DNA from: Minisyncoccota bacterium
GTDB lineage: Bacteria > Patescibacteriota > Minisyncoccia > Phycocordibacterales > WO2-35-19
Direction of reading: 5' to 3'
Length of the DNA stretch: 64,000 nucleotides
NCBI GenBank assembly: GCA_041664625.1
Contig: JBAYKK010000002.1
Location: forward strand, 7,755-71,754
Shown here: one piece after another, positions 7,271 through 43,146 of the stretch
Position numbering within the stretch: the first letter of the stretch is position 1
Layout of the letters: each line of letters starts with the position of its first letter
The notes under the pieces: model-generated
Seen by the model: the letters and a program-made list of their open reading frames with translations, nothing else
What the model was told of the DNA's origin: nothing
The model's database searches: none
Made by a program: the position numbers and the translations under genes

Positions 7271-7456
7271 ATGGCAAAAACTTCAGTAAAAGCAAGAGCT
7301 CTCAAAAAACCGAAATTTAGCACTCGGGCAGTTAAACGCTGTTTTAAGTGCGGTAGAGGCAGAGCTTATATGGGAGATTTCGGTCTTTGCCGAATTTGTT
7401 TCAGAGAACTTGCCAATGACGGCAAGATTCCCGGAGTTAAAAAATCATCATGGTAA
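7271..7456 (+). CDS. rpsN: 30S ribosomal protein S14 type Z (zinc-binding)
   Basis: 61 aa, CxxC...CxxC (CFKCGR...CRIC), conserved S14 C-terminal motif. Confidence 0.9.
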
Positions 7457-7848: not shown

Positions 7849-7962
7849 TTAAAGATACAAATATGCGAATGTTACAAATGCAACAAATGAATACAAATAA
7901 GAAAAATAGATTCGTAGCTATTAGTATAATTAGTACAATTCGTATATTGGTATCATAATATT

Positions 7963-8496
7963 ATGTCAAGAATAGGAAAAAAAGGAATAGTAATACCGGA
8001 CAAAACAGAAGTCACTATGAATTCTGGTGTTATTTTGGTGAAAGGACCAAAAGGTTCTTTGGAGAAGATTTTTCGTTCTGATATTTTGGTTACTATAAAT
8101 GAAAAAGATATTTCTTTGACTCTAGCTAAAGAAAACAAACAAACCAGGGCTTTGTGGGGAACTTACGCTTCTCATTTGAAAAATATGGTCAAAGGAGTAA
8201 CTGAAGGCTTCGAAAAGAAATTGATTTTGGAAGGAGTGGGTTTCAAATCTCAAGTGACTGGCAACAAACTGATTTTGGCTCTCGGATTTTCTCATCCAGT
8301 AGAGGTGGAGATACCAGAAGGATTGAGCGTAAAAGCCGAAAAAAACATAGTAACCGTATCAGGTATTGATAAAGAATTGGTTGGTAGTTTCTCTGCTAAA
8401 ACTAGAGCATTGAAAAAACCAGAACCATATAAAGGCAAAGGTTTTCGTTATTTTGATGAAGTTATAAGGAGAAAACAAGGTAAACGATCAGTATAA
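7963..8496 (+). CDS. rplF: 50S ribosomal protein L6
   Basis: MSRIGKKGIVIPDKTEVT...VKGPKG motif. Confidence 0.9.
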   Translation: MSRIGKKGIVIPDKTEVTMNSGVILVKGPKGSLEKIFRSDILVTINEKDISLTLAKENKQTRALWGTYASHLKNMVKGVTEGFEKKLILEGVGFKSQVTGNKLILALGFSHPVEVEIPEGLSVKAEKNIVTVSGIDKELVGSFSAKTRALKKPEPYKGKGFRYFDEVIRRKQGKRSV

Positions 8497-8512
8497 TTGA
8501 AAATTAAAAAAC

Positions 8513-8860
8513 ATGGATACCAAAGTTAAAAAAATACAAAGAGAAAGAAGGAAAAAGCGCATCAGAGCCAAGGTTTTTGGTGTGAACGCTAAACCTAGAC
8601 TTTCGGTATTTAGATCAAACAAATACATCACCGCCCAACTTATAGATGACACAAAAGGTTTGACTTTGGCTTCTGCTACTAGTAAGAATATGAAAGGCAA
8701 AAGTGTATTAGAAAAAGCCAAAGCGGTAGGTTCGAGTGTCGCCGAACAAGCCAAAACCAAAAAAATTGAAACAGCAGTGTTTGATAGAGGCGGTTATCTT
8801 TATACTGGTTCAGTCAAAGCGGTGGCTGATGGGGCTAGAGAATCTGGTCTTAAATTTTAA
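8513..8860 (+). CDS. rplR: 50S ribosomal protein L18
   Basis: RKKRIRAKV...PRLSVFRSNKYIYAQLIDD pattern. Confidence 0.9.
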   Translation: MDTKVKKIQRERRKKRIRAKVFGVNAKPRLSVFRSNKYITAQLIDDTKGLTLASATSKNMKGKSVLEKAKAVGSSVAEQAKTKKIETAVFDRGGYLYTGSVKAVADGARESGLKF

Positions 8861-8872
8861 TTAAATAATATT

Positions 8873-9505
8873 ATGCCTAACGAAGAAGAAAAAAAAGAAA
8901 TAGAAGGAATAGAAGAAGCGGTTGAGGAAACCATCATACCTTCTGAAATAGTGAAAGAAGCTTCTCCTGTAGCTCCTATTAATTTTACGCCAAACAACCG
9001 AGATAGACGCAAAAATGAACGCCGACCTTCTCGAAGACCAGAGCGAGCCAGACAAGAATTTGATAATAAAATCATAAGTGTAAGGAGAGTGACTCGTGTG
9101 GTTGCCGGAGGTCGTAGATTCAGTTTCAGTATCGCTATAGTTATCGGTGACAAAAAGGGCCGAGTAGGTGTAGGTATCGGCAAAGCGACAGATACTCCAA
9201 TCGCTATTGAAAAAGCTACTCAAGCAGCCAAAAAAAGCATGATCACTGTACGTTTGAACAAGAAAAATTCTATCAGCCACCCAGTCGAAGCCAAATACTC
9301 AAGCGCAATAGTTTCTATAATGCCGGCTCCAGGGAAGGGGGTGATCGCTGGAAGCGCTACTCGTGTAGTCTTGGAATTGGCTGGAGTGAAAGAAGTTTCT
9401 TCTAAAATCCTTTCCAGATCCAAAAACAAATTGAATATAGCTAGAGCTACCATCCAAGCTCTTCAGCAATTAAAAAATTTAAAGATTGAAAAATTAAAAA
9501 ATTAA
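8873..9505 (+). CDS. rpsE: 30S ribosomal protein S5 with ~60-aa acidic/basic N-terminal extension
   Basis: Core RVTRVVAGGRRFSFSIAIVIGDKKGRVGVGIGKA; extension EEKKEIEGIEE... Confidence 0.9.
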   Translation: MPNEEEKKEIEGIEEAVEETIIPSEIVKEASPVAPINFTPNNRDRRKNERRPSRRPERARQEFDNKIISVRRVTRVVAGGRRFSFSIAIVIGDKKGRVGVGIGKATDTPIAIEKATQAAKKSMITVRLNKKNSISHPVEAKYSSAIVSIMPAPGKGVIAGSATRVVLELAGVKEVSSKILSRSKNKLNIARATIQALQQLKNLKIEKLKN

Positions 9506-9551
9506 ACAAAATCATTCAATCTTTTAATATTTCAATTATTTAATCAAAAGT

Positions 9552-9971
9552 ATGCAACTCAACAATTTAAAAAAGAATAAATCAAACAGGAAAGCCAAAC
9601 AAGTTGGCCGAGGTGGTGCCCGTGGCAAAACTTCTGGTCGTGGGACCAAAGGTCAAAATGCTAGAGCTGGTAGAAAGAAAAGACCAGAAATGCGAGACAT
9701 CATTAAAAGATTGCCAAAATTAAGAGGTAGAGGAAAAAACTTCTTAAAATCTAGATTAGAAGAAAATACAGTCGTTAAATTCTCAGCTCTGGTTGAAGCT
9801 TTCAAAGTTGGCGAAACTGTCAGCCCTAAAGTTTTGCTTGAAAAAGGTCTCGTAAAAATAAGAAATGGTAAGATTCCAAAAATAAAAATCTTGGCCGATA
9901 ACCAAGTCAAAAAATCTTTTATCTTTGAAGGAGTTAAGGTTTCAGAAAATGTCAAAAAATTGGTGGTTTAA
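9552..9971 (+). CDS. rplO: 50S ribosomal protein L15
   Basis: GRGGARGKTSGRGTKGQ motif; only 46 bp after S5 so no L30 gene. Confidence 0.9.
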   Translation: MQLNNLKKNKSNRKAKQVGRGGARGKTSGRGTKGQNARAGRKKRPEMRDIIKRLPKLRGRGKNFLKSRLEENTVVKFSALVEAFKVGETVSPKVLLEKGLVKIRNGKIPKIKILADNQVKKSFIFEGVKVSENVKKLVV

Positions 9972-9982
9972 TTTATAACATA

Positions 9983-11254
9983 ATGAATAATTTTATTCAT
10001 AAAACAAAGTTAGTATTTGGAGATAAGATTTTAAGGGGTAGGATAATGTTCACCCTCTTAGTTTTGGTATTGTTTCGTTTGATGGCGGTGATCCCTATCC
10101 CTGGTATAGATACTTTGAGACTTGAGCAATTTTTGACTGGTAATGACTTCTTTGGCTTACTCAACATATTTTCTGGTGGTGGTCTTTCCAACTTGTCTAT
10201 CATAATGCTCGGAGTGAGCCCTTACATCACTTCTTCTATCATCATGCAACTTATGACGGTCATGTTCCCTAAACTCAAAGCTATGTATCAAGAAGAAGGG
10301 GACGCTGGTCGCAAGAAGTTTTCACAATATTCCAGACTTCTGACTGTGCCTTTGGCATTGATGCAAGGTTTTGCTTTTATCACTTTGCTTCAAAGTCAGG
10401 GTATTTTGGCTAAACTTTCTACTTTTGATTTGGTTACCAACTTGGTAGTTATAAGCACCGGTTCTATATTGCTTATGTGGTTGGGTGAACTTATTTCTGA
10501 ATTTGGTATCGGCAACGGTGTCTCGCTTATCATCTTCGCGGGTATCGTTTCGGTTTTGCCAGGTTCTATAAGCAAGCTTATCGTAGCTTTTGACCCATCA
10601 CAATTGCCAGCTTACCTTGGTTTCTTGGTAGCGGCTTTGGTAGTTATCTGGGGTGTGGTGGTGATCACTGAAGCGGAAAGACCAATACCAGTCACTTATG
10701 CCAAACAAGTCAGAGGCAACAAAGTCTATGGTGGAGTTTCTACTTATTTGCCACTGAGAGTGAACCAAGCGGGCGTGATACCTATCATCTTCGCTCTCTC
10801 TATTTTGCTTTTCCCTCAAATGATAATGAAGTTTTTGGTCAATATTAATATTGCTATCGTACAATCTATCTCTAATTTCTTGTTAGCTCTTTTGGAAAAT
10901 CAGTTGTTTTATGGAGTTGCTTATTTCCTTTTGGTTTTCATTTTTACTTATTTTTACACCGCGATCACTTTTGATCCAGATTCAATTTCCAAAAACTTGC
11001 AAAGGAGCGGAGCCTTTATACCTGGCATTCGCCCTGGTGTTCCTACTTCTCAATACATTGCCAACACTCTTTTCCGTTTGACTATGGTTGGGGCACTTTT
11101 CCTCGGTATCATCGCGGTCTTGCCGTTGGTGGTCAAATACTTCACTGGTATCAGCGCGGTGGCTATCGGTGGTACAAGCCTCCTCATCGTAGTTTCAGTT
11201 GTGATTGATCTCATCAAAAAAGTTGACGCCCAAATTTCCGCTAGGGAATATTAA
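9983..11254 (+). CDS. secY: preprotein translocase subunit SecY
   Basis: 10 TM pattern, conserved LFRLMAVIPIPGID N-terminal region, 423 aa. Confidence 0.9.
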   Translation: MNNFIHKTKLVFGDKILRGRIMFTLLVLVLFRLMAVIPIPGIDTLRLEQFLTGNDFFGLLNIFSGGGLSNLSIIMLGVSPYITSSIIMQLMTVMFPKLKAMYQEEGDAGRKKFSQYSRLLTVPLALMQGFAFITLLQSQGILAKLSTFDLVTNLVVISTGSILLMWLGELISEFGIGNGVSLIIFAGIVSVLPGSISKLIVAFDPSQLPAYLGFLVAALVVIWGVVVITEAERPIPVTYAKQVRGNKVYGGVSTYLPLRVNQAGVIPIIFALSILLFPQMIMKFLVNINIAIVQSISNFLLALLENQLFYGVAYFLLVFIFTYFYTAITFDPDSISKNLQRSGAFIPGIRPGVPTSQYIANTLFRLTMVGALFLGIIAVLPLVVKYFTGISAVAIGGTSLLIVVSVVIDLIKKVDAQISAREY

Positions 11255-11345
11255 AAACAAAAATAAAAAACAAATTCTTCCTCCCTAAAGGGTTCCCACA
11301 GAATTTGTTTTTTATTTTTGTTTTTACTTACTTATTTGCTATACT

Positions 11346-11996
11346 GTGAAAGAATTCGGTCGTGCTCCAATGGACGTATCGCACGACATGATTTCGCTAA
11401 ATCATATGACACCACAAACATTTATATTTTTTGGACCATCGGGTTCAGGTAAAGGCACTCAAGCCAAACTTTTACAAGACGAAATTAAAAAAAGAGATCC
11501 AGAACGCAATATCCTTTATATAGAAACTGGCCAAAAATTTAGAGAGTTGGCTCAGGGTGATTCTTTCACGGCTCAAAAAATAAAAGAAGTGATAGAAACC
11601 GGCGGGCTTTTGCCTGAGTTTTTGCCAGTCTGGGTGTGGACGGGGATTATGATTGAAAACATCAAAGGCGATGAGCACATTTTCACAGATGGACTTTCTC
11701 GTCAGCCCAAAGAAGCACCGGTTTTGGATTCGGCTATGAAATTTTATAAAAGAGAAAGACCAAAAGTTATTTCCATTGAAGTTTCCGACGAGTGGGCTAC
11801 CAAACTTTTGAAAGGCCGAGGTCGCGGGGATGATAATGACGCCGAAATAACCAAGAGATTGGGTTGGTACAAAGAAAATGTGATGCCTGCCATAGAATAT
11901 TTCAAAAACAATGATTATTATGAGTTTATAGCTATCGACGGCGAGCATACTATCGAAGAAGTGCATCAAGATATAATGACAAAAGTAGGTCTATGA
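11346..11996 (+). CDS. adk: adenylate kinase (true start possibly downstream ATG near 11406)
   Basis: P-loop FFGPSGSGKGTQA, LID region with R..DD. Confidence 0.85.
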   Translation: MKEFGRAPMDVSHDMISLNHMTPQTFIFFGPSGSGKGTQAKLLQDEIKKRDPERNILYIETGQKFRELAQGDSFTAQKIKEVIETGGLLPEFLPVWVWTGIMIENIKGDEHIFTDGLSRQPKEAPVLDSAMKFYKRERPKVISIEVSDEWATKLLKGRGRGDDNDAEITKRLGWYKENVMPAIEYFKNNDYYEFIAIDGEHTIEEVHQDIMTKVGL

Positions 11997-12766
11997 TTAA
12001 ATACAAAAAAGAGGAAGAGATAGCCATAATGAGAGAAGGAGGCAAGATCCATGCGCGCATTTTGCAAGAGGTGGCTAAAAAGGTTAAGCCAGGAGTCAAA
12101 ACTGATGCTTTGAATACTTACGCTGAACAACTTATCGATGAGGTCGGAGGCGTAGCTTCTTTCCTTGGTTACCAACCATATGACGCCAAAAGACCTTACC
12201 CTGCAGCGCTTTGCGTCTCTATCAATGAAGAAATCGTGCATGGTATCCCCAACGATGGTAACGAAAGGATTTTGTTTGAAGGTGATATTGTGACTTTGGA
12301 TTTGGGTTTAACTTACAAAGGCTTCATTACTGATGCGGCTATCACTGTGCCGGTCGGTAAAATAACCAAAGAGGTTGAGACTTTGGTTAGGGCTACCAAA
12401 GAAGCGTTGGACAGGGGCATAAAAGCTATGCGTCTGCATGGTCACATCGGAGATATCGGAGACGCTATCATGCAGGTAGCAATGAAGTATGATTTTGGTA
12501 TTATAGAAGGGCTCTCGGGTCATGGAGTGGGTTATAGTGTACATGAAGAGCCTTATGTGCCCAATAAAGCTAAGCGTGGCGAAGGCCCGGAGCTCAAAGA
12601 AGGTTTAGTTATCGCGATTGAACCGATGCTTTCGATGGGTAGTCGGGATATCAAAAGATTGTCAGATGGTTATACTTTCATCACACGTGACAAATCGCTT
12701 TCGGCGCATTTTGAACACACGGTGGTAATGACTAAAAGTGGTGTGGAAATATTAACAAAATTATAA
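11993..12766 (+). CDS. map: methionine aminopeptidase type I
   Basis: Pita-bread fold metal ligands (D..D..H..E..E pattern), 257 aa, overlaps adk stop by 4 nt. Confidence 0.9.
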   Translation: MIKYKKEEEIAIMREGGKIHARILQEVAKKVKPGVKTDALNTYAEQLIDEVGGVASFLGYQPYDAKRPYPAALCVSINEEIVHGIPNDGNERILFEGDIVTLDLGLTYKGFITDAAITVPVGKITKEVETLVRATKEALDRGIKAMRLHGHIGDIGDAIMQVAMKYDFGIIEGLSGHGVGYSVHEEPYVPNKAKRGEGPELKEGLVIAIEPMLSMGSRDIKRLSDGYTFITRDKSLSAHFEHTVVMTKSGVEILTKL

Positions 12767-14228: not shown

Positions 14229-14657
14229 ATGTTTAGAAAGCCGCTTTTTTTGGAAACTTTTATTTTACTTGCGACTGTTGGTATTCTTAATTATTTCGCT
14301 ACCCGTTATCATCTCTACTGGTCAACTTACGAATTTGATTCTCTAGTCCATTTTTTGGGTGGAGCCACTTTGTCTGCCTTTTTCTTGTGGGCTTACTTTT
14401 TTTCTGGTTTTTTTGATCCGCAAAAAAGAAAACTCAAAAACTTTTTGTTGGTCGCTTTTTTGGGGGCAATGTCGGTGGCTATAATTTGGGAGATTTATGA
14501 AATTTTTCTAGGCGAAGTGGCCGTGAGTGGAGCCGAATATCCGTACGATACTATGATGGATTTGATTATGGATTTTTTGGGTATTATGGCTTTTTGTTTT
14601 TACGGTTACATGAGAGAGTATAATCAAAAAATGATTATAAAAAATCAAAATGAATAA
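14229..14657 (+). CDS. hypothetical integral membrane protein (4 predicted TM)
   Basis: 142 aa, four hydrophobic segments; no recognisable family. Confidence 0.6.
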   Translation: MFRKPLFLETFILLATVGILNYFATRYHLYWSTYEFDSLVHFLGGATLSAFFLWAYFFSGFFDPQKRKLKNFLLVAFLGAMSVAIIWEIYEIFLGEVAVSGAEYPYDTMMDLIMDFLGIMAFCFYGYMREYNQKMIIKNQNE

Positions 14658-16119
14658 TTTAAAAATCACATTTTTTGGTGGGGCCGGTTCTACTACTGGG
14701 GCTAACATAATGCTTGAAGTTGGAAGTAATCCCACTTCGCCAAAGCTTCGCGGGACAAGAATTTTGGTGGATTGCGGACTTTTGCAAGGTGCTCGATTCG
14801 CTGAAGATAAAAATTTTGAAAATTTCAAATATAACCCAGCTGAAATTGATTTTCTTTTGATTACTCATGCTCATATGGATCATATAGGCAAAGTGCCCAA
14901 ATTGGTGCGTGATGGTTTCAAAGGCAAAATAATATCTACGGTGGAAACTATGGAACTGGCTCGACCGATGCTCGTAGATGCTCTGAAAGTGATGCAAGCT
15001 CGTCACCCCAACCAAACTCTTTTTGAAGAAGCTGATATAAACAAATCTTTTGCTTTGTGGGAAGGCCGAAGTTATGAAGAGAAAATAAATCTTTTTGAAA
15101 ATTGTAGTTTATTTATGCAAGATGCTGGGCATATATTGGGTTCGGCTATTTGCAATGTCACTTGTGGAGTGGGGGAAGAATCAAAGACCATAGCCTTCAC
15201 TGGGGACTTGGGTAATTCGCCTTCGCCTATTTTGCCAGATACCGAGACCCCAAAAGGAGTTGATTATTTGGTTATGGAGAGTGTCTATGGAGATAGGAAT
15301 CATGAAAGCAAAGACGAAAGAAGACAAAAATTAAAACAAGCTATTTTGAATGGCCAAGAAAGAGGGGGTACTATAGTGATCCCGGCTTTTTCCATAGAGC
15401 GGACTCAGGTTTTGCTTTATGAGTTGAATAATATGATTGAAGATCAAGAGATCCCCAAGGTGCCAGTTTTTTTGGACTCTCCTTTAGCTCTCAAAGTAAC
15501 TGATATTTATAAAAAATATCAAAAAGATTTCAAACCATCAGTCCAACAAGAAATACAATCGGGCGATGATATTTTTGATTTCCCTGGTTTACAAATAGTG
15601 AGGAATACCAGAGAGTCAGAAGAAATAGAAAAATTGGCCGGGCCTAAAATAATTTTGGCCGGTTCAGGTATGTCTGAAGGGGGGAGAGTGGTCAGTCATG
15701 AAGCTCGATTTTTGCCCGATCCTACGGCTACTATTATTTTAGTCGGTTATCAGTCAGTCGGTTCATTGGGTAGAGCGATTCAAGATGGAGTCAAAGAGGT
15801 TTTCATAGAGACTGATGGTGACAAGAGCAACGGTAAAGAAAAAGTAAAAGTCAGAGCCACTATTGAAAACATAACTGGTTATTCATCGCACAAAGATTCG
15901 GAGCATTTGCTGGAGTTCGTCGAAAAAGTAAATGACTCGACCTCACCCCCAACCCCTCTCCTTGCGAAGGAGAGGGGAGAAGGAAAAAAAGGATTGAAGA
16001 GGGTTTTCGTTATAATGGGCGAACCCAAATCATCCCTTTTCCTCACTCAACGCATCCGCGATTATCTCGATATTGACGCAGTTTATCCAGAAGAAAATAA
16101 AGAATACGAATTAAAATAA
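14650..16119 (+). CDS. metallo-beta-lactamase fold ribonuclease, beta-CASP family (RNase J-like)
   Basis: HAHMDH motif 2, D...H motifs, beta-CASP motif GYSSHKDSEHL; contains an in-frame hairpin-repeat insertion (TSPPTPLLAKERGEGKKG). Confidence 0.8.
   Translation: MNNLKITFFGGAGSTTGANIMLEVGSNPTSPKLRGTRILVDCGLLQGARFAEDKNFENFKYNPAEIDFLLITHAHMDHIGKVPKLVRDGFKGKIISTVETMELARPMLVDALKVMQARHPNQTLFEEADINKSFALWEGRSYEEKINLFENCSLFMQDAGHILGSAICNVTCGVGEESKTIAFTGDLGNSPSPILPDTETPKGVDYLVMESVYGDRNHESKDERRQKLKQAILNGQERGGTIVIPAFSIERTQVLLYELNNMIEDQEIPKVPVFLDSPLALKVTDIYKKYQKDFKPSVQQEIQSGDDIFDFPGLQIVRNTRESEEIEKLAGPKIILAGSGMSEGGRVVSHEARFLPDPTATIILVGYQSVGSLGRAIQDGVKEVFIETDGDKSNGKEKVKVRATIENITGYSSHKDSEHLLEFVEKVNDSTSPPTPLLAKERGEGKKGLKRVFVIMGEPKSSLFLTQRIRDYLDIDAVYPEENKEYELK
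15940..15977 (+). repeat. R-family hairpin repeat copy R1, inside the beta-CASP CDS, in frame
   Basis: acctcacccccaacccctctc-cttgcgaag-gagagggg matches intergenic family consensus. Confidence 0.7.
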
Positions 16120-16174
16120 CCTCACCCCGTTTTCCTTACGGAAAACTGCCCCTCTCCTAGACGCAGGGGAGGGG
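16118..16174 (+). repeat. R-family hairpin repeat copy R2 (double-hairpin variant)
   Basis: aacctcacccc + gttttccttacggaaaac + cccctctc-ctagacgcag-gggagggg. Confidence 0.7.
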
Positions 16175-18336: not shown

Positions 18337-18517
18337 ATATTTTGTTGTAATTCCGTCTTAGTTTAGACGAGTGCGGAGGCCTTTTTCTTTGTTTTTTGGA
18401 AAATTTAGGTTCATTTTGTTTAAAAATTGGGCATTCTTCACTGTTTATATAACGAAATTACTTGTTTAATAGTAATGCCTTAATTATACAGAATTTGCCT
18501 AAAATACGCAAATCAAA

Positions 18518-18574
18518 AACCTCACCCCACTTTCCTTCGGAAAGTTGCCCCTCTCTTATATTAAGAGAGGGGAG
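18518..18574 (+). repeat. R-family hairpin repeat copy R3 (double-hairpin variant)
   Basis: aacctcacccc + actttccttcggaaagt + cccctctc-ttatattaa-gagagggg. Confidence 0.7.
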
Positions 18575-18592
18575 TTCCGCCATAAATGAGTT

Positions 18593-22647: not shown

Positions 22648-22685
22648 TAACTCACCCCCAACCCCTCTCTTACATTAAGAGAGGG
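22648..22685 (+). repeat. R-family hairpin repeat copy R4
   Basis: aactcacccccaacccctctc-ttacattaa-gagagggg. Confidence 0.7.
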
Positions 22686-22783
22686 GAAAACGAATAAATA
22701 AGAAAGAAAAAATCCGCGGGTAATGCGGAGTGACAATCTTTCAGTATTAAAACCATTATATACCCAAGAGGGTAAACAGTCAA

Positions 22784-27088: not shown

Positions 27089-28291
27089 ATGGCAGAAGCT
27101 TTTGATCGTTCTAAACCTCACGTAAACGTCGGTACCATTGGTCACGTCGACCATGGTAAGACTACTTTGACCGCATCAATTTTGAGAATCCTCGATATGA
27201 AAAAAGGCGAGGGTTATGGTGCTCGCGTTGAAGCCGTCGATAACATTGACAACGCTCCTGAAGAAAAGGCCCGAGGGATTACCATCGCCTTGCACCACAG
27301 TGAATATTGGACTCCTACTAGACATTACGCTCACATCGACGCTCCAGGTCACGCCGACTACATTAAAAACATGATTACTGGTGCTGCTCAGATGGATGGT
27401 GCCGTGCTCGTCGTTGCCGCTACTGATGGTGTGATGCCTCAAACTCGTGAACACATCCTTTTGGCTCACCAAGTGGGTGTGCCTAAGATTATCGTTTTCT
27501 TGAACAAATGCGATATGGTACCCGAACAAGATCTTATTGATTTGGTGGAAGAAGAAATTCGTGAACTTTTGACCAAAAACCATTATGACGGTGCTGCCAC
27601 TCCTATCATCCGTGGTTCAGGTCTCAAAGCTTTGGAAGCTAAAGATTTGGAAGACCCTTACGCTAAAGCGGTAGTAGAATTGGTCAACGCTCTCGATACT
27701 TACATCCCAATGCCAGATCGTGAACTTGATAAACCTTTCCTTATGCCAATTGAAGACATCTTCTCCATTGAAGGTAGAGGAACTGTGGTTACTGGTAAAA
27801 TCGAAAGGGGTGTCGTAAAAGTCGGTGAAGACGTAGACGTCATCGGTTTGCATGATGCTCAAAAAACTACTGTTACCGGTATTGAAATGTTCAATAAACA
27901 ACTTGAAAGAGGAGAAGCGGGGGATAACGCCGGCATCTTGCTCCGAGGTTTGAAAAAAGACGACGTGCATCGTGGTCAGGTTATTGCTAAACCAGGAAGC
28001 GTCACCCCTCATACAGACTTTGAATCAGAAGTTTACATTTTGAAGAAAGAAGAAGGTGGTAGACACACTCCATTTTTCACTGGTTACAAACCTCAGTTCT
28101 ACATCAGAACTACTGACGTGACTGGTGAAGTGACTTTGAAAGAAGGAGTAGAAATGGTTATGCCTGGAGACACCGCAACCTTCAAAGTCAAATTGGTAGC
28201 CCCAGTGGCCCTTGAAGAAAAACAAAAGTTTGCTATCCGCGAAGGAGGCAAGACTGTGGGAGCGGGTTTCGTAACCAAAATAGTTGCATAA
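27089..28291 (+). CDS. tuf: elongation factor Tu
   Basis: [25 protein letters not shown] motifs; 400 aa. Confidence 0.97.
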
Positions 28292-28293
28292 AA

Positions 28294-28361
28294 ACACCTC
28301 ACCCCTAGCCCCTCTTCATCGTCTGTTCGATTCTGCTGAATCGCCTAGATTAGGAGAGGGG
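28294..28361 (+). repeat. R-family hairpin repeat copy R5 (expanded, extra inner hairpin)
   Basis: acacctcacccctagcccctcttc...cgattctgctgaatcg...ggagagggg directly after tuf stop. Confidence 0.65.
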
Positions 28362-28385
28362 AAAAGGAAAGGAACAAAAGATAAT

Positions 28386-28757
28386 ATGACAGAGAGTACA
28401 TTAAAAAAAGAAAAGAAAACAACAAAGGCTAAGGTCAAAAAAGAAGACCCTATCTCTAAGTTGCGCATCAGAGTCATGGCCTATGAATATAAAGTGCTTG
28501 ATATTTCGGTCAAGCAAATCATAGACACGGCTATGCGTTATGATGCCAAGATCGTCGGCCCGATACCTTTGCCAACTGAAATCAAAAAATGGACAGTCAA
28601 CCGTTCACCTTTCGTTTACAAAAATGCTCGTGAGCAGTTTGAAATGAGAGTCCATCGCCGAGTGATTGATATAGTGAACCCAAGCCCAAAAATAATGGAT
28701 TCACTGACCAATCTTTCTCTACCAAGTGGTGTGAGTATCGACGTGAAAATCATCTAA
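28386..28757 (+). CDS. rpsJ: 30S ribosomal protein S10 with N-terminal K/E-rich extension
   Basis: Core IRIRVMAYEYKVLDISVKQIIDTAMRYDAKIVGPIPLPT; start moved to ATG 28386 (RBS GGAAAGGAA) because track ORF start runs through repeat R5. Confidence 0.85.
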   Translation: MTESTLKKEKKTTKAKVKKEDPISKLRIRVMAYEYKVLDISVKQIIDTAMRYDAKIVGPIPLPTEIKKWTVNRSPFVYKNAREQFEMRVHRRVIDIVNPSPKIMDSLTNLSLPSGVSIDVKII

Positions 28758-29456: not shown

Positions 29457-30002
29457 ATGTCAAAACAACAAACACAAGAAAGTCGAAATTGGTATGCTAT
29501 CCATACCTACTCTGGCTATGAAAATGCCGTTTTAAGGAACTTGAAACAGCGCATTGAATCTTTGGGCATGGAAGACAAAATCTTCAATGTTTTGGTGCCA
29601 GTGGAGAAAAAAATAAAAATAAAAGGTAATAAACGAGTAGAAGAAGAGGAAAAAATCTATCCGGGTTATGTCTTGGTAGATATGATAGTGACTGATGATT
29701 CTTGGTATGTCGTCCGTAACACTCCTCGTGTGACTGGTTTCGTCGGAGCGGGAGTTTTCCCAGTGCCACTTGATCCCAAAGAAGTAGAAGAACTTTTCAA
29801 GAGGATGAGTTCTGAGAAGGTCAAACACAACATTGATCTTTCGCTTGATGATGCGGTAAAGATTGTTGATGGGCCATTCAAAGATTTGGAGGGCAAAGTT
29901 GGGGAAGTAGATGAGGAACGAGGCAAGGTCAAAGTCTTGGTGCCTATGTTTGGCCGTGAGACTCCGGTAGAATTGGACTTCTTGCAAGTTAAAAAGATTT
30001 AA
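29457..30002 (+). CDS. nusG: transcription termination/antitermination factor NusG
   Basis: NWYAIHTYSGYEN NGN domain, C-terminal KOW (KVGEVDEERGKVKVLVPMFGRETPVELDF). Confidence 0.9.
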   Translation: MSKQQTQESRNWYAIHTYSGYENAVLRNLKQRIESLGMEDKIFNVLVPVEKKIKIKGNKRVEEEEKIYPGYVLVDMIVTDDSWYVVRNTPRVTGFVGAGVFPVPLDPKEVEELFKRMSSEKVKHNIDLSLDDAVKIVDGPFKDLEGKVGEVDEERGKVKVLVPMFGRETPVELDFLQVKKI

Positions 30003-30019
30003 GGTAAGGTATAACCCGT

Positions 30020-30439
30020 ATGGCAAAAAAAATAACAAAAAAAATAAAATTGGTTATAACGGCTAAAAAGGCCACTCCAGCACCTCCAGTAGGTACTGCG
30101 CTTGGTCCAGCTGGTATAAACATTGGTGAATTCGTCACCAAATTCAACGAGGCCACCAAAGACATGGAAGGTTTGGTGCCAGCCGAAATTACTGTTTATG
30201 AAGACCGAACTTTTGATTTCGTATTGAAAACTCCTCCGGCTTCGAGCCTCATAATGAAAGCTTTGGGTATCGAAAAAGGAGCTGGTAAAGCACCTAGTCA
30301 AAAAGTGGGCACTATCACTAAAAAACAACTAGAAGAAATCGCTCAAATAAAAATGGTGGATTTAAACGCTAACGACTTAGAGGCAGCTGTCAAAATAATC
30401 GCTGGTCAGTGTAGGAGTATGGGCGTTGAGGTGAAATAG
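30020..30439 (+). CDS. rplK: 50S ribosomal protein L11
   Basis: [29 protein letters not shown] motif. Confidence 0.9.
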
Positions 30440-38200: not shown

Positions 38201-38545
38201 ATGTCACGATCACTCAAAAAAGGCCCTTACGTTGACCCAAGGGTTATCAAAAAAATAGAAGGCAAAAAGCCTCAGGATACTGGGGTTATTAAGACTTGGT
38301 CTAGAGCTTGTACTATTTCACCAGAGATGGTGGGTTTCACTTTTGGCGTGCACAATGGCCGAGATCATATCGAAGTTTTCGTCACTGAAGATTTGGTAGG
38401 TCACAAATTGGGTGAATTTTCTTTGACTCGCAAATTTATAAAACACGGAGGAAAGATGCAAAAAGATTTGGAGGCTAAGAAAAAAGACGATGAAATAAAC
38501 GCTGCTAAAGCTGCTAAAGCTTCGGTGGATGCCAAGAAAAAATAA
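38201..38545 (+). CDS. rpsS: 30S ribosomal protein S19 with K/A-rich C-terminal extension
   Basis: SLKKGPYVD...[23 protein letters not shown] core. Confidence 0.9.
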
Positions 38546-38560
38546 AATACTCAAAACAAA

Positions 38561-38929
38561 ATGAACGAAATAACCGCACAGCTAAATAGTTACAGACAAT
38601 CACCAAGAAAAGTGAGAGTAGTCGCAGATGCACTGAGGGGTAAGTCTATAAAAGAAGCCAAAAGTAGATTGGATTTTATAATCAAACGCGCTACTGGCCC
38701 ATTGCACAAACTGCTCAATTCAGCTGTCGCTAATGCCAAAAATTTGGGAGCCGATGTTGATAAACTTTTTGTTAAATCTATTTCAGTAGATGCCGGTAAA
38801 ATTTTATACAGAAGGATGCCAGTTTCTCATGGTTCAGCCCACACTATCCATAAACGCACTTCTCATATCAAAATAGTTTTGGCTGAGAAATTTAAAGCAG
38901 TAAAAAATAAAGATAATAAGAAAAAATAA
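38561..38929 (+). CDS. rplV: 50S ribosomal protein L22
   Basis: R.SPRKVR.V.D.IRGK pattern. Confidence 0.85.
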   Translation: MNEITAQLNSYRQSPRKVRVVADALRGKSIKEAKSRLDFIIKRATGPLHKLLNSAVANAKNLGADVDKLFVKSISVDAGKILYRRMPVSHGSAHTIHKRTSHIKIVLAEKFKAVKNKDNKKK

Positions 38930-38933
38930 TTTT

Positions 38934-39608
38934 ATGACACACACAGTACATCCATATGCTCATAGATTAGGTATCATTCGTGACTGGAAGTCACGTTGGT
39001 TTAGTGTCAAAGACAAATACCGAGAAAATTTGAAAAGTGATGTTTTGGTTTTTGAATATTTAAAAAAGAGATTAAAAAATTGTTTTGTTAATACTACTGA
39101 AATAGAAAGAAGCGCCAAAGTTTTTAGAATCATCATCGAAACTTCTCGTCCTGGTTTTATAATCGGCCGAAGCGGTGAGGGGATGGTGAAGCTCAGAGAA
39201 GATATCATCCGTTTTATGAAAAGACGCAAGTTGAATTTGGCCGAAGAGCTCAAAATAGACGTCAAAGAAGTTAAATCTCCAGAATCCAGCTCTATGATCG
39301 CGGCTCAGATGGTGGCCGAAGGATTGGAAAAAAGATTGCCTTTCCGCCGAGTCATCAAGACTATGATCGAAAAAGCTTATGCTAACCGTGATGTCAAAGG
39401 AGTGAAGATTACTCTTTCCGGTATTATGGGCGGTTCGGCTATGGCGAGGATAGAGACCAAAAAGGTAGGGCGTATCCCTTTGCAGACTTTGCGTGCTGAT
39501 ATTGACTATGCACTTTATGAAGCTCATCTACCGCTTGGTAAAATTGGTATAAAAGTTTGGATTTATAAAGGCGATATTTTCGAAAAAGATAAAAGTGTAA
39601 AATCATAA
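38934..39608 (+). CDS. rpsC: 30S ribosomal protein S3
   Basis: HPYAHRLGI..DW.SRWF, KH domain, C-terminal domain. Confidence 0.9.
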   Translation: MTHTVHPYAHRLGIIRDWKSRWFSVKDKYRENLKSDVLVFEYLKKRLKNCFVNTTEIERSAKVFRIIIETSRPGFIIGRSGEGMVKLREDIIRFMKRRKLNLAEELKIDVKEVKSPESSSMIAAQMVAEGLEKRLPFRRVIKTMIEKAYANRDVKGVKITLSGIMGGSAMARIETKKVGRIPLQTLRADIDYALYEAHLPLGKIGIKVWIYKGDIFEKDKSVKS

Positions 39609-39617
39609 TTTAATATC

Positions 39618-40037
39618 ATGTTATTCCCAAAAAAAGTTAAATACAGAAAATGGCATACCATGCGCGAAAATCCTGACAAAGTGAGTCCGGCTACTCGTGG
39701 TATCAAAGTGTCTTTTGGTTCTCATGGCCTCAAAGCCATGGTACCCGGCAGGATCACTTCCAAACAAATCGAAGCGGCTAGAAAAGCCATCACTCACAAT
39801 TTGGGTAAAACTGGTAGAGTTTGGATACGTATTTTCCCAGATATGCCTTTCACCAAAAAGCCAGCCGAAGTGAAAATGGGTAAAGGTAAAGGTGATATAG
39901 AAGGTTACTTGGTCAGAGTTTTGGCTGGGCAAGTGATGTTTGAAGTAGATGGAGCAGTTGATGCTGTGGCCGTAGAATCATTGCGCAAAGGCGGTACCAA
40001 GATGCCAGTGAAGACTAAGATTGTGGCTAGAATATAA
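39618..40037 (+). CDS. rplP: 50S ribosomal protein L16
   Basis: [13 protein letters not shown]... Confidence 0.9.
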
Positions 40038-40075
40038 CACCCCCCAACCCCCCTCTTACATTAAGAGGGGGAGAG
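40037..40075 (+). repeat. R-family hairpin repeat copy R6 (between rplP and rpmC)
   Basis: acaccccccaacccccctct-tacattaa-gagggggagag. Confidence 0.7.
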
Positions 40076-40098
40076 AAAAGAAAAAACAAAACAAAAAA

Positions 40099-40281
40099 AT
40101 GAAAAAAGAATTAGCAAAAAAGAATAAAGCAGATTTGCAAAAAGAACTTGACGAAAAGCGAGTAGCAGTTCATAGTATACGCTTTAACATGGCTGGTAGT
40201 AAAAGTAAAAATGTTAAGGAACAAAAGAACATCAAAAAAGATATAGCCAGAATCAAGACTGAATTAAGAATTATGAATTAA
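40099..40281 (+). CDS. rpmC: 50S ribosomal protein L29
   Basis: MKKELAKKNKADLQKELDEKRVAVHSIRF; internal in-frame ATG used because track ORF start lies in repeat R6. Confidence 0.8.
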   Translation: MKKELAKKNKADLQKELDEKRVAVHSIRFNMAGSKSKNVKEQKNIKKDIARIKTELRIMN

Positions 40282-40286
40282 GAATT

Positions 40287-40562
40287 ATGGATAAAAAGAA
40301 AGAAAAAAAGAATACAGAAGCAACAGAGACTATTTCCAGAGCCAAGACTTTGACTGGGGTAGTGGTATCAGACAAGATGAAAGACACTTGCGTGGTTTCT
40401 ATCACTCGATTTGTTAAACACACCAAATACAAAAAATATTATAAAGTTAGCAAGAAATACAAAGTGCATGATGTTGGCAATATCAAAAAGATTGGCGATA
40501 AAGTAGAAATAATTTCTTGCCGACCGATTTCCAAAGATAAGCATTTCATAATTGTAAGTTAA
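40287..40562 (+). CDS. rpsQ: 30S ribosomal protein S17
   Basis: LTGVVVSDKMKDTCVV core. Confidence 0.9.
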   Translation: MDKKKEKKNTEATETISRAKTLTGVVVSDKMKDTCVVSITRFVKHTKYKKYYKVSKKYKVHDVGNIKKIGDKVEIISCRPISKDKHFIIVS

Positions 40563-40566
40563 AAAC

Positions 40567-40944
40567 ATGATTCAACCACAAACAATAGTTAAAGTAGCCG
40601 ATAACTCAGGAGCCAAGATAGGTCGCGTTTTCAAGATACTCGGCAGTTCCAAAAAAAGATACGCTGGCATAGGCGAGTTGGTTATTTTTTCTGTTCAAAA
40701 AGCTGAACCCCGAAAAGAAATAAAAAAGAAAGCCGTTCTTTTGGGATTGGTGGTTCGTCAAAAAGCGCCATTACGACGCAAAGACGGTTCTTATATCCGT
40801 TTCGATGAAAACGCAGTGATCGTAGTAGATCAAAAAAAGGGTGAGATCGTACCAAAAGCCGGACGTATCTTTGGTCCAATACCTAGAGAAATTGCTGAGG
40901 CTGGTCACCAAGCTATAGTTTCGTTAGCCCCGGAAGTGATTTAA
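40567..40944 (+). CDS. rplN: 50S ribosomal protein L14
   Basis: MIQPQTIVKVADNSGAK. Confidence 0.9.
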   Translation: MIQPQTIVKVADNSGAKIGRVFKILGSSKKRYAGIGELVIFSVQKAEPRKEIKKKAVLLGLVVRQKAPLRRKDGSYIRFDENAVIVVDQKKGEIVPKAGRIFGPIPREIAEAGHQAIVSLAPEVI

Positions 40945-40948
40945 GATA

Positions 40949-40989
40949 ACACCCCCCAACCCCCCTCTTACATTAAGAGGGGGGAGGGA
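40949..40989 (+). repeat. R-family hairpin repeat copy R7 (between rplN and rplX)
   Basis: acaccccccaacccccctct-tacattaa-gaggggggaggg. Confidence 0.7.
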
Positions 40990-41016
40990 AAAGAAAAAAC
41001 AAATAAAAACAAAAAC

Positions 41017-41238
41017 ATGAAAATAAAAAAAGGAGACAAAGTAATGGTGATCACAGGTAAAGACAAAGGCAAATCAGGTCCTGTGGTTAAAGCTTTTCCT
41101 AAAAACGATATGGTTTTGGTAGAAGGAGTCAACAAACACAAATTACACAAAAGACCAAGGAAAAGTAATGAGAAAGGCAAGATTATAGAGCAGGCTACGC
41201 CGGTACATGTTTCCAATGTTAAGAAAGTAACCAAATAA
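41017..41238 (+). CDS. rplX: 50S ribosomal protein L24
   Basis: [23 protein letters not shown] motif. Confidence 0.9.
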
Positions 41239-41280
41239 AAACCTCACCCCCAGCCCCTCTCCTAGATGCAGGAGAGGGGA
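41239..41280 (+). repeat. R-family hairpin repeat copy R8 (between rplX and rplE)
   Basis: aacctcacccccagcccctctc-ctagatgcag-gagagggg. Confidence 0.7.
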
Positions 41281-41309
41281 GAAGGGAGAGAAAAAATAAC
41301 AAAAACAAT

Positions 41310-41858
41310 ATGAAATTAATGAAAGAAAAAACCAAAGACGCCTTCAAAGAACTCAAAGAAAAATTGGGTATGAAAAATGTCATGCAGTCTCCCAAGATTG
41401 TGAAAGTGGTAGTGAATTCCGGAGTTGGTTCTTTCAATGATAAAAAGAAAATTGATATCGTTATCGACCGATTGGCCAAAATCACTGGTCAAAAACCGAT
41501 CAAAAGGGGAGCCAAACAATCAGTCGCATCTTTCAAATCTAGACAAGGTGATATCGTAGGAGTGCAGATCACTTTGCGTGGCGAAAAAATGTGGAGTTTT
41601 TTGGATCGTCTTTTTCATATCGCGTTGCCTCGTACCAAAGACTTCAGAGGGATTTCAGAGACTGCCGTAGATGAAATGGGTAACTACACACTTTCCATCA
41701 AAGAGCATGTCGTGTTCCCAGAAACTGCTGATGAAGATTTGAAAGACGTTTTTGGTTTTTCAGCTACTTTGGTCACCAATCTCAAAAACTCAAAAGATGC
41801 ACTCGAATTTTTCAAAGCTCTAGATTTTCCTTTCAAAAAAACTTCTCTTAAGAAATAA
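41310..41858 (+). CDS. rplE: 50S ribosomal protein L5
   Basis: NVMQSPKIVKVVVN... L5 pattern, 182 aa. Confidence 0.9.
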   Translation: MKLMKEKTKDAFKELKEKLGMKNVMQSPKIVKVVVNSGVGSFNDKKKIDIVIDRLAKITGQKPIKRGAKQSVASFKSRQGDIVGVQITLRGEKMWSFLDRLFHIALPRTKDFRGISETAVDEMGNYTLSIKEHVVFPETADEDLKDVFGFSATLVTNLKNSKDALEFFKALDFPFKKTSLKK

Positions 41859-41870
41859 TTTTTTCCCAGA

Positions 41871-41908
41871 GGGTGACCCTTGAAGACCCTGCCCCAAAGG
41901 GTCACCCT
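41871..41908. repeat. inverted repeat agggtgaccct ... agggtcaccct (hairpin) after rplE
   Basis: Arms are reverse complements and each is self-palindromic. Confidence 0.5.
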
Positions 41909-41921
41909 CAGATTCTTAATA

Positions 41922-41954
41922 ACACACCCAACCCCCTCTTATTTTAAGAGGGGG
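41922..41954 (+). repeat. R-family hairpin repeat copy R9
   Basis: acacacccaaccccctct-tatttta-agaggggg. Confidence 0.65.
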
Positions 41955-41967
41955 CACTGGAACACAA

Positions 41968-42000
41968 AAAGCTCAACGACTCTCTCGTTGAGCTTTTTCG
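41968..42000 (+). terminator. rho-independent terminator agctcaacg-actctct-cgttgagct + TTTTT
   Basis: Read directly; ends r-protein transcription unit. Confidence 0.65.
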
Positions 42001-42039
42001 TTAATATACGCGCAAAAACAAGGACTTTTTGCGATTTAG

Positions 42040-42090
42040 TTGACAATCACTTGACAATTGAATACAGATTGGTTTACAATTGACTTGTAA
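42040..42090 (+). promoter_or_regulatory. operator-like region: direct repeats TTGACAAT x2 and perfect palindrome TTACAA-TTGAC-TTGTAA abutting ATG of downstream regulator
   Basis: Read directly at 42040-42047, 42051-42058 and 42074-42090. Confidence 0.4.
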
Positions 42091-43146
42091 ATGAAAAACA
42101 AGGAAAAAATACTAGAGATAATAAACAAACAAGGGAGGGTGACTTCTGCTGAAATCGCCTCTGAATTAGGCGTATCTCGCCAGTATGTAAATATGGTTAT
42201 TTCTGATCTGATTGCTGATAAAAAAATTATTAAAATAGGAGGAACTCGCAATGCCTTTTACATATCTTATACATTTGCAAAAAACCATCCTGAGACATTT
42301 CCTTCTGTATTTAAAAAAACTTATAAGAATCAATCGCTTGAGGAACACAAAGTTTTGGTTGAGATGGAAGAAAAACTTCCTCAAATTTTGAACTTGCCCG
42401 AAAATTTAAAAAGTATCATTACCTTTGCATTTTCTGAAATATTTAATAATGCTATCGAGCACTCACTATCAAAAAATATTTCGGTAGAAGTGGCTATGAG
42501 AGATAATAAACTTTCTTTTATTATTTTAGATTCTGGTATTGGGGTTTTTAGAAATATTATGGAAAAAAGAGGATTACATTCAGAAATTGAAGCTATCCAA
42601 GATCTACTCAAGGGCAAAACTACTACAATGCCAAAATCACATTCAGGTGAAGGTATTTTCTTTACTTCGAAATCGGCAGATTTATTTATTTTAGACAGTT
42701 TCGGCTACCAATTAACCATAAACACAAAGACAGACGGTGTTTCGATTAAAGATGTACCTGTTCTCAAAAAGGGTACACGGGTTATATTTGAAATTGATAC
42801 AAATTCAGAAAGACATCTCAATCAAGTATTCGAGAAATTCACCAATTTGGTGAATGAAGGAGAATATGGTTTTGATAAGACTGAAATCCGAGTCAAACTA
42901 TACACGATGGGCGGTGTGCACATATCACGTTCGCAGGCTCGTAGAATTCTCTCCGGATTAGAAAAATTCAAAATAATATTGTTTGATTTCGAAAATGTTC
43001 CTATTGTTGGACAGGCTTTTGCAGATGAAGTATACAGAGTTTTTCAGCATAAATATCCAGATATTAAACTTGAAGAAGAAAACATGTCCGAGGGTGTCCG
43101 CTTTATGATTGAGCGAGCCAAAAACGAGGTCAAAAAGTCATTGTAA
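42091..43146 (+). CDS. putative regulator: N-terminal HTH + GHKL/anti-sigma-factor-like ATPase + C-terminal DUF4325 (STAS-like)
   Basis: ILEIINKQGRVTSAEIASELGVSRQYVNMVI HTH; AFSEIFNNAIEHS / ILDSGIG N and G1 boxes; C-terminal KIILFDFENVPIVGQAFADEV. Confidence 0.6.
   Translation: MKNKEKILEIINKQGRVTSAEIASELGVSRQYVNMVISDLIADKKIIKIGGTRNAFYISYTFAKNHPETFPSVFKKTYKNQSLEEHKVLVEMEEKLPQILNLPENLKSIITFAFSEIFNNAIEHSLSKNISVEVAMRDNKLSFIILDSGIGVFRNIMEKRGLHSEIEAIQDLLKGKTTTMPKSHSGEGIFFTSKSADLFILDSFGYQLTINTKTDGVSIKDVPVLKKGTRVIFEIDTNSERHLNQVFEKFTNLVNEGEYGFDKTEIRVKLYTMGGVHISRSQARRILSGLEKFKIILFDFENVPIVGQAFADEVYRVFQHKYPDIKLEEENMSEGVRFMIERAKNEVKKSL

Follow-up and report, generated by a model that had tools for sequence, protein, structure and literature searches.

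A G/C-rich hairpin repeat with a covarying third strand in a Minisyncoccota bacterium, a probable relative of the BoxC/PIT/TM_ECO elements

Probable kinship with the triplex-motif repeats of Escherichia coli

Repeats of the BoxC, PIT and triplex-motif kind have been known since the 1990s, and we know of no function found for them and of no triplex detected in vivo. The Escherichia coli repeat was named BoxC, then PIT element (Hoyne/Maher 2000) and then TM_ECO (Holder et al. 2015, PMC4666352). An oligonucleotide of its G-rich strand forms a triplex by circular dichroism (CD) and NMR, with a melting temperature of 70-82 °C, and the NMR data favour the triplex over a G-quadruplex (G4) (PMC4666352). 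The E. coli copies are always intergenic, lack a strand bias and show no association with mobile elements (Holder et al., PMC4666352); PIT elements have neither promoter nor terminator activity and have been tied to local genome variability. Here we describe nine copies of a G/C-rich hairpin repeat in a stretch of 64,000 nucleotides (nt), called the window throughout, from contig JBAYKK010000002.1 of a Minisyncoccota bacterium, a member of the Patescibacteria (candidate phyla radiation, CPR). The elements are very probably G/C-rich intrastrand triplex-motif repeats of the BoxC/PIT/TM_ECO type (class II purine motif). We lean towards regarding them as duplicative and largely selfish or neutral DNA whose hairpin effects in mRNA would be incidental.

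One TM_ECO example in the published Table 1 reads CCCTCTCCC-TGT-GGGAGAGGG-CCG-GGGTGAGGG (PMC4666352). The reverse complement of TM_ECO, CCCTCACCC-CGG/TAA-CCCTCTCCC-loop-GGGAGAGGG, differs from the window form, CCTCACCCC-CGG/TAA/CAA-CCCCTCTCC-loop-GGAGAGGGG, solely by one C that is shifted across the TCAC/TCTC core. In both repeats a single strand contains three blocks of 8-11 nt, which are separated by loop 1 and then by a 3-nt loop 2; both use G.G-C, A.A-T and T.A-T triads, with TCAC in the third strand and TCTC in the duplex as nearly the same core; both show the loop-2 sequences TTA and CCG; and both are dispersed and patchy among relatives. Because the window element is a one-base-shifted relative, we assign it to the broad class and not to TM_ECO sensu stricto. 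The published pattern, CCCTCNCCC-N3-6-GGGNGAGGG-N3-GGGNGAGGG, has no match in the window, since the elements have four rather than three G/C beside loop 2; its 17 environmental matches fall in 12 loci where the window's variant is present as well. TM_ECO itself is present but unannotated in almost all complete E. coli genomes (5414 of 5426, at a median of 18 places), and one copy sits between flgF and flgG with its G-rich strand as the sense strand. The two repeats differ in density, which is about 28 times higher in the window (9 per 64 kb versus 23 per 4.64 Mb), and in host, which here belongs to the Patescibacteria. Copies of the window's clade are mostly sense, abut stop codons, carry a polypurine tail and optionally a GNA hairpin in loop 2, and three of them lie within open reading frames (ORFs), whereas the E. 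coli copies are intergenic only.

The same E. coli sequences have been read as G4-forming under the names HPG1 and HPG2, with a C-rich 5′ flank that gives a hairpin (Kaplan et al. 2016, PMC5100583). We consider a G4/hairpin/duplex switch of this kind very improbable for the window elements. The E. coli homologues have four tracts of at least three G and show K+-dependent CD changes (PMC5100583), and type IV variants of relatives (GGGGAGGG-TTA-GGGTGGGG) also have four tracts. The dominant window types, I and II, however, have only two tracts of at least three G (GG-AGA-GGGG-TTG-GGGGG-TGA-GG and GGGGGG-TT-GGGGGG). A G4 leaves unexplained both the way in which A and T of the third strand track the duplex and the covariation with the C-rich arm, which a triplex explains, and it was the triplex that NMR favoured in E. 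coli (PMC4666352).

Other small repeats share single traits with the element. Like REP, BIME and REPIN sequences, it is a short (20-40 nt) GC-rich palindrome with an asymmetric flank and a high copy number, found in intergenic sequence and also within operons, and such repeats can stabilise upstream mRNA. Unlike them, it has a flank, (T)AACCTCACCCC or TAACACCCCCC, without a GTAG/CGTC tag, in the 64-kb window its copies are not inverted pairs and no RAYT gene was seen, and the flank is a mirror-repeat third strand instead of a cleavage tetranucleotide. Rickettsia palindromic elements (RPE), from the work of Ogata et al. in 2000, are said to insert in-frame in genes and to be kept as extra peptide in tolerant loops; they resemble the window element as small palindromic repeats in protein genes and differ in their size (100-150 bp), their unrelated sequence and their lack of a triplex architecture. 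With H-DNA the element has in common the mirror repeat of a pyrimidine tract (third strand plus 5′ arm), the triad chemistry and the association with genome instability. In contrast to H-DNA it carries the complementary arm on the same strand too, so that a single strand can form all three strands without any long duplex being unpaired. Our literature search turned up no account specific to repeats of Patescibacteria.

Covariation of the 5′ segment with the hairpin

The first-pass annotation of the window had reported nine hairpins, all on the plus strand and each with a C-rich segment on its 5′ side. We checked the region 39900-42100 and all other positions that it named by direct reading of the sequence, and all nine were found. 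The strict pattern CCCCTCTC-N5-14-GAGAGGGG has 4 matches in the window versus 0.00 expected, and the relaxed pattern CCCTCT-N4-16-AGAGGG has 7 versus 0.04 expected; outside the relaxed pattern are the copies at 16149-16174, with one T.G pair, and 28309-28361, with a 35-nt loop insert. Taken by itself, the 9-mer CCTCACCCC does not reach significance, with 14 matches at ≤1 mismatch versus 6.65 expected. As the window has only ~38% G+C, the copies are indeed the conspicuous G+C islands that had been described. The form given for them was correct as to the hairpin and its 5′ C-rich segment, but the loops of 9/10 nt shorten to 3-6 nt once the stems are drawn in full, and the supposed single form divides into two subtypes. 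Six copies (15940, 16119, 18519, 22649, 28297, 41241) are of type I, ACCTCACCCC + CCCCTCTCC/GGAGAGGGG, and three (40035, 40947, 41920) of type II, TAACACCCCCC + CCCCCCTCTTA/TAAGAGGGGGG. Loop 1 measures 3-6 nt in eight of the nine copies and 35 nt in copy 28297, while loop 2 measures 2-4 nt in seven.

The C-rich 5′ segment, here called X, is more than a flank, which the first-pass annotation had missed. As a mirror repeat of the hairpin's 5′ arm it conforms to the triplex code, and it covaries with the hairpin as a third strand. When X is set against the purine arm (R) in parallel register from the stem base, C stands opposite G, and A or T opposite A, and this rule is near-perfect across 69 distinct X/R variants. 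Hairpins were detected without reference to X in about 330 loci, elements fetched by an X-containing pattern being left out, and the variants are from about 300 loci. In these variants the base opposite G is C at 452 of 467 positions; opposite internal A of R we counted T 59 times, A 43 times, G 6 times and C once, in 61 distinct elements chosen only on C opposite G. We also examined 233 distinct hairpins whose upstream sequence is C-rich and whose purine arm is asymmetric; a perfect X/R match occurs in 72 of them in the parallel register versus 8 in the reversed one, and the corresponding null expectations are a mean of 2.3 (maximum 10 in 1000) for shuffled upstream sequence and a mean of 16 (maximum 27) for swapped R. 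In the CPR loci alone, which were gathered via the L5 protein, the match is found in 18 of 28 in the parallel register and in 0 of 28 in the reversed one. Relatives with different stems carry a correspondingly different X: CCCCACCC goes with GGGGAGGG, CCTCATCC with GGGGAAGG, TAACCCCCT with TAAGGGGGA and TAACTCCTC with TAAGAGGAG. Selection on the three-strand match is thereby seen as covariation.

The architecture of pyrimidine arm, purine arm and third strand is present in all nine window copies and in 33 copies of relatives. On the G-rich bottom strand the order from 5′ to 3′ is pyrimidine arm, loop 1, purine arm, loop 2 and a G/T/A third strand, as in CCCCTCTCC-loop-GGAGAGGGG-TTG-GGGGTGAGG. 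The third strand runs antiparallel to the purine arm on this strand, with G.G-C, T.A-T and A.A-T triads. These are the triads of the published class, in which one mismatch at most is allowed. Two other partners were considered and rejected. Pairing of X with the downstream purine tail or a Shine-Dalgarno-like sequence is at odds with the unconserved sequence of the tail and with the 8 reversed versus 72 parallel matches. The polypurine tail as a second third strand on the plus strand gives a median match of 0.45, and only 2 of 42 copies reach 0.8.

The bases opposite A also bear on which strand folds. A and T occur there about equally often and C almost never, which is the purine-motif rule and points to G-rich DNA as the strand that folds. 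Were the motif a pyrimidine one, on the C-rich strand or in RNA, it would need U together with runs of 4-6 protonated C, so that the observed A/T usage favours the purine motif. This usage speaks to an alternative to which we give a minor but real share of belief, namely that the element acts between cistrons as RNA, in the form of a C-rich mRNA hairpin on which X perhaps forms a pyrimidine-motif RNA triple helix as a cap. According to the cited literature, pyrimidine-type triplexes can form in RNA and purine-motif triplexes do not. However, A occupies 43 of the 109 positions opposite A-U, which is non-canonical for the pyrimidine motif, and neutral pH is unfavourable to 4-6 C+ triads in a row.

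Between X and the stem, the linker is either 2-4 nt long or itself a small hairpin. In copies 16119 and 18519 loop 2 is a hairpin of 17-18 nt, a variant outside the published TM_ECO definition. Across elements the stems of these hairpins are compensatory (GTTTTCC/GGAAAAC, ACTTTCC/GGAAAGT, GGCC/GGCC, GTCGCGC/GCGCGAC and others) and their loop is near-constant, being TTC on the C strand and hence GAA on the G strand in at least nine elements; TGC/GCA occurs in two, and TTAC/GTAA and TTGC/GCAA are seen too. Loops of the cGNAg/cGNNAg form are reportedly exceptionally stable DNA mini-hairpins (an observation credited to Hirao and Yoshizawa), and we take the constant loop-2 triloop, closed by C-G on the G-rich strand, to be of this form. 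The GAA/GCA triloop with this closing pair favours the G-rich DNA strand and counts against a role at the RNA level, where the same loop would read UUC and have no special status.

Orientation and gene context of the copies

Orientation relative to transcription, which the first-pass annotation had raised as the comparison to make, is non-random in the clade to which the genome belongs (Paceibacterota/Zambryskibacteria), with 27 sense versus 4 antisense copies where both flanking genes agree. We classified 42 elements with gene calls from a self-trained codon model, and the counts include orthologous sites and are not independent. Longest-ORF calling is unusable for this purpose because long antisense ORFs arise from purine-rich coding strands. 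There are 24 elements in sense orientation between co-directional genes, 3 in sense orientation within ORFs and 4 antisense to both neighbours; in convergent gaps 5 others come after a stop codon and are in sense orientation, and 2 have the sense orientation relative to the downstream gene alone. In 22 of the 42 copies the start of X is no more than 3 nt from the upstream stop codon, a count inflated, like that of the sense copies, by orthologous sites. The minus-strand copies follow minus-strand genes (locus L011 at 11774, L014 at 5770, L030 at 1932 and L017 at 4561), indicating that orientation tracks transcription and not the chromosome strand. Orientation by replication strand was considered as well and is not supported; the GC skew of the window is uniformly positive, but the minus-strand copies of relatives are co-oriented with minus-strand genes in loci of positive skew. 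A crude ORF sign test on environmental contigs gave a sense bias of 92:42 in viral contigs and none (44:42) in metagenomes.

These observations bear on the RNA-level reading. It would make the mRNA hairpin a barrier to 3′ exonucleases, a processing site or a means of uncoupling the translation of neighbouring cistrons, with the polypurine or A-rich tail as an unstructured leader. In its favour are the 27:4 sense excess and the tracking of transcription, the abutment of X on stop codons, and the tail to the next AUG, which is at least 88% purine over the next 25 nt in seven of the nine window copies, against 1.4% of background windows at 84% or more. The predicted RNA hairpins, with folding modelled as hairpins only, have energies of about -20 to -28 kcal/mol, and in two copies the stem is kept by G.U pairs on the sense strand alone. 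Against it stand the close relatives that lack the element, or have unrelated inserts, at the same junctions; the existence of antisense and in-ORF copies; the lack of promoter or terminator effects of E. coli PIT elements; and the 44:42 of the metagenomes next to the 92:42 of the viral contigs. Of the three roles proposed in the first-pass annotation, a REP/BIME-like selfish element comes closest, and RNA processing or stability is a less probable candidate.

Gene context in the window was taken from translations and precomputed Pfam annotation. Five of the nine copies lie at ribosomal-protein or tuf junctions; of those placed elsewhere, 15940 is within an ORF and not intergenic, 18518 is antisense and 22648 is in a divergent gap. 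All copies are given here in plus-strand coordinates. At the L16/L29 junction, copy 6 (type II, 40035-40099) has X at 40035-40044, which contains the L16 stop codon TAA, arms at 40049-40058 and 40062-40071, and a polypurine tail at 40072-40099 that abuts the rpmC ATG at 40100. Copy 7 (type II, 40947-41016), at the L14/L24 junction, consists of X at 40947-40957, an AA linker, arms at 40960-40970 and 40974-40984, and a polypurine tail at 40985-41016 abutting the rplX ATG at 41017. At the L24/L5 junction, copy 8 (type I, 41241-41309) has X at 41241-41250, the linker CAG, arms at 41254-41263 and 41270-41279, and a polypurine tail at 41280-41309 that ends at the rplE ATG at 41310. Copy 9 (type II, 41920-41954) lies 64 nt past the L5 stop codon; its X is degenerate (TAACACACCC, one C-to-A change), its arms are at 41932-41941 and 41945-41954, and it has no tail. 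Between tuf and rpsJ, 6 nt past the tuf stop codon, copy 5 (type I, 28297-28361) has one T.G pair and a purine tail that extends to the rpsJ ATG at 28386, and its loop 1 holds a 35-nt insert (28318-28352) with a hairpin of its own, CGATTC-TGCT-GAATCG, that leaves the outer stem intact. The ORF caller had, as noted in the first-pass annotation, stretched rpsJ (to a TTG at 28284) and rpmC (to a TTG at 40021) through these copies.

The remaining four copies are of type I. Copy 1 (15940-15977; X 15940-15949, linker CAA, pyrimidine arm 15953-15963, loop GCG, purine arm 15967-15977) has a purine-rich tail up to about 16002 and lies in-frame within the MBL/beta-CASP ORF at 14650-16119, where it translates as TSPPTPLLAKERGEGKKG. 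Copy 2 (16119-16174) begins with X (16119-16128) at the stop codon of this beta-CASP gene and has the loop-2 hairpin GTTTTCC-TTAC-GGAAAAC (16129-16146), arms at 16149-16158 and 16165-16174 with one T.G pair, and an A-rich tail up to 16199. Copy 3 (18519-18572), which lacks a tail, is antisense to its neighbours rny and clpP, both on the minus strand, and its loop-2 hairpin ACTTTCC-TTC-GGAAAGT corresponds, when the G-rich strand is read, to cGAAg. Exactly over this copy (18458-18583, minus strand) public gene calls have a 41-aa ORF without a Pfam match, which is probably a gene-caller artefact. Copy 4 (22649-22686), in the gap between the divergent nusA (minus strand) and a 1250-aa ORF (plus strand), is a type I variant with X = AACTCACCCC and the stem CCCCTCTCTTA/TAAGAGAGGGG; its purine-rich tail reaches to about 22712.

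That the copies are intrinsic terminators or attenuators, or chance low-complexity matches, is in our judgement hardly credible. They are strong GC hairpins, several of them just past stop codons, but the expectation by chance is 0.00-0.04, several copies are internal to ribosomal-protein operons, and no U-run follows any of the nine, in keeping with the first-pass view that they are not full terminators. By the usual definition of an intrinsic terminator, a GC-rich hairpin with an immediate U-run, the sequence after the hairpins is A/G-rich instead. A separate, canonical terminator was read directly from the sequence at 41971-41998 (plus strand; GCTCAACGA-CTCTC-TCGTTGAGC followed by TTTTT); it starts 17 nt past copy 9, ends the S19-L5 operon and is not part of the repeat. 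In relatives, this conserved terminator hairpin, of the form (G)GCTCAACG-loop-CGTTGAGC(C) with a T-run, lies just 3′ of triplex elements at about 10690 in L018, 10700 in L021 and 12930 in L024, and this recurrent hairpin may be the other repeat family of the first-pass annotation. At gathering score the Rfam matches in the window are limited to two tRNAs, and no family matches the elements; in 39900-42100 the sole match at E ≤ 1 was a chance mir-320 hit of 18.8 bits, against a threshold of 55.5.

Some features of the wider window were also recorded. The ribosomal-protein cluster is reordered and broken up into S14-S8-L6-L18-S5-(139 aa)-SecY-adk-map at 7271-12766, tuf-S10 at 27089-28757, nusG-L11 at 29457-30439 and S19-L22-S3-L16-L29-S17-L14-L24-L5 at 38201-41858; L3/L4/L23/L2 lie outside the window, and unrelated genes follow L5 in relatives too. 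The segment 42000-52500, about 10 kb from L5 to pilM and the type IV pilus genes, is not in L003, L005 or L009, where pilM lies 1-2 genes past L5. Among its products are an HTH/HATPase protein, a LexA-S24 peptidase-DNA methylase fusion and SocA_Panacea, besides several unknowns; it has a low G+C content of 0.31-0.32 at 44-50 kb, and is probably an acquired island. ARAGORN places a tRNA-Ile with anticodon TAT (UAU) at 2745-2818 on the minus strand; most bacteria have a CAU/lysidine tRNA-Ile2 instead.

Presence among relatives, duplication and spread

To follow the element through related genomes, 80 species loci around rplE were compared. The L16/L29 spacer is 62 nt long in the window versus 2-12 nt in relatives, and the L14/L24 and L24/L5 spacers hold, depending on the species, a triplex element (type I, II or IV at one and the same site), nothing (4-9 nt) or unrelated palindromes. 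Across Paceibacteria the S19-L5 operon spacers also contain many other, unrelated AT-rich palindromes of 40-230 nt, such as the CACGAATGACACGAAT...ATTCGT family, the AAAATTGAAAATT family and long inverted repeats that run from just past the stop codon to just before the ATG (L014, L015, L017, L021, L022, L027-L029, L033, L035, L041, L047, L049, L056, L078, L088 and others). The junctions of this operon are general hot spots for small inserts. Protein genes show the same kind of variation, as the ArgRS of L027 and L029 carries an in-frame element in a variable linker, and many beta-CASP orthologues have the empty site EKVAP-KKVFVIMGEP, others having different P-rich...GEG...KK inserts at the same point. 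Such different inserts occur in P0124, P0130, P0140, P0146, P0147, P0151 and P0165 (for example ...EDGERSRT... and ...SPGLRLDLSSTEERQGKQ...) and may represent elements of another type, or triplex elements in which loop 2 is a hairpin.

One duplication is recent. Positions 40030-40105 and 40942-41023, which comprise copies 6 and 7 with their tails, share ~92% identity across about 75 nt that extend from ATAA to ATGAAAA, indicating recent copying of a whole stop-to-start spacer. Compared with the empty site AGAATATAA-GT-ATGAAAAAAGA in L005, the two copies show microhomology at both ends. These data bear on the possibility that the folded G-rich strand is the substrate of an HUH/Y1, RAYT-like transposase acting on single-stranded DNA, which would mobilise the elements in trans as non-autonomous units, like REP/REPIN sequences. 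We regard this as unlikely, though it is compatible with selfish, duplicative DNA and not exclusive of it. The structured single-stranded fold, the conserved flank beside the hairpin, the high copy number, the variable presence at orthologous sites, the recent duplication and the abundance in viral contigs, sometimes with 5-14 copies per contig, would all suit such a substrate. Yet the GTAG/CGTC tag is absent, the recent duplicate has microhomology (ATAA, ATGAAAA) and not a target-site duplication at its ends, and Holder et al. saw no association with mobile elements in E. coli (PMC4666352). Pfam detected no transposase, and specifically no Y1/IS200-type or RAYT gene, across the 64-kb window, which is a small part of the genome.

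The exact type-I pattern, with 24-25 specified bases, was found in at least 120 stretches of a viral collection and at least 120 of a metagenome collection. Among the matches listed, the contigs range from 34 to 73% G+C, and 3-14 copies are present in some viral contigs. It follows that the element is neither confined to CPR genomes nor restricted to ribosomal-protein operons. In two viral contigs (L125 1278-2380 and L147 4878-5850; IMGVR_UViG_3300020057_000061 and 3300020203_000232) type-I elements form tandem arrays with a period of about 72 nt, and since the sequence between units is identical these are tandem repeats and not CRISPR-like. A BLAST search of the element against cultured-phage records returned one record, a method that serves short low-complexity queries poorly.

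Under the reading that we favour, of selfish or neutral DNA, the third strand would enter the major groove of the hairpin in single-stranded DNA and lie antiparallel to the purine arm, to give a class II purine-motif triplex, and the three-strand match would be kept at this single-stranded DNA level. We infer that this fold forms in vivo. The elements fill the few gaps of a compact CPR genome, usually the exact interval between a TAA stop and the ATGAAA start that follows, with their polypurine tail; they also lie in-frame in variable protein loops, and they come and go at orthologous sites. On this reading they would be tolerated in such gaps and loops only. Spread may proceed by copying of whole stop-to-start spacers through TAA/ATGAAA microhomology, as the one recent pair suggests. 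In the sense orientation the G-rich, triplex-forming strand is the template of transcription, and the mRNA receives only the C-rich hairpin. G-rich non-template strands reportedly block transcription through R-loops (a finding attributed to Belotserkovskii et al.). If this applies here, the elements would be tolerated mainly with the G-rich strand as template, and the mRNA hairpin would be a side effect.

Several points weigh against this reading. The 27:4 sense excess and the adjacency to stop codons would fit a role at the RNA or translation level more directly. The triplex of the E. coli repeat was undetected by in vivo dimethyl sulfate footprinting, and no function was found for it (PMC4666352). 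The suggested route of spread draws on a single duplicated pair, and no candidate mobilising enzyme was recognised by Pfam in the 64-kb window. Finally, G.T wobble pairs do not discriminate between strands: two window copies (16149, 28309) keep their stem through T.G only on the plus, RNA-sense strand, and two copies of relatives (L024 12904, L031 6987) do the reverse, which is a tie.

The class of triplex repeats now extends to the Patescibacteria and is abundant in viral contigs. In the genome studied here it reaches a very high density, within core ribosomal-protein operons and essential genes, although the genome is minimal and non-coding DNA in it is costly. The elements mislead ORF callers, which stretched the starts of rpsJ and rpmC and placed a probably spurious 41-aa gene over an antisense copy; they add peptide segments to proteins, and they mark junctions of differing gene order among relatives. 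Dozens of natural variants keep to the triad code of the purine motif and have GNA loops of the DNA type, which lends indirect support to the view that the triplex fold, and not the hairpin alone, is selected. It is a bolder and rather doubtful step to take the three-way covariation and the GNA mini-hairpin as comparative evidence of an intrastrand purine-motif DNA triplex that is folded and selected in living cells. If that were true, a fold carried by a CPR clade and many phages might be a working device and not junk. It could be the recognition structure of an undescribed structure-dependent system of copying or mobilisation, spread between bacteria by phages, or alternatively a punctuation mark at the DNA level at the boundaries of cistrons.

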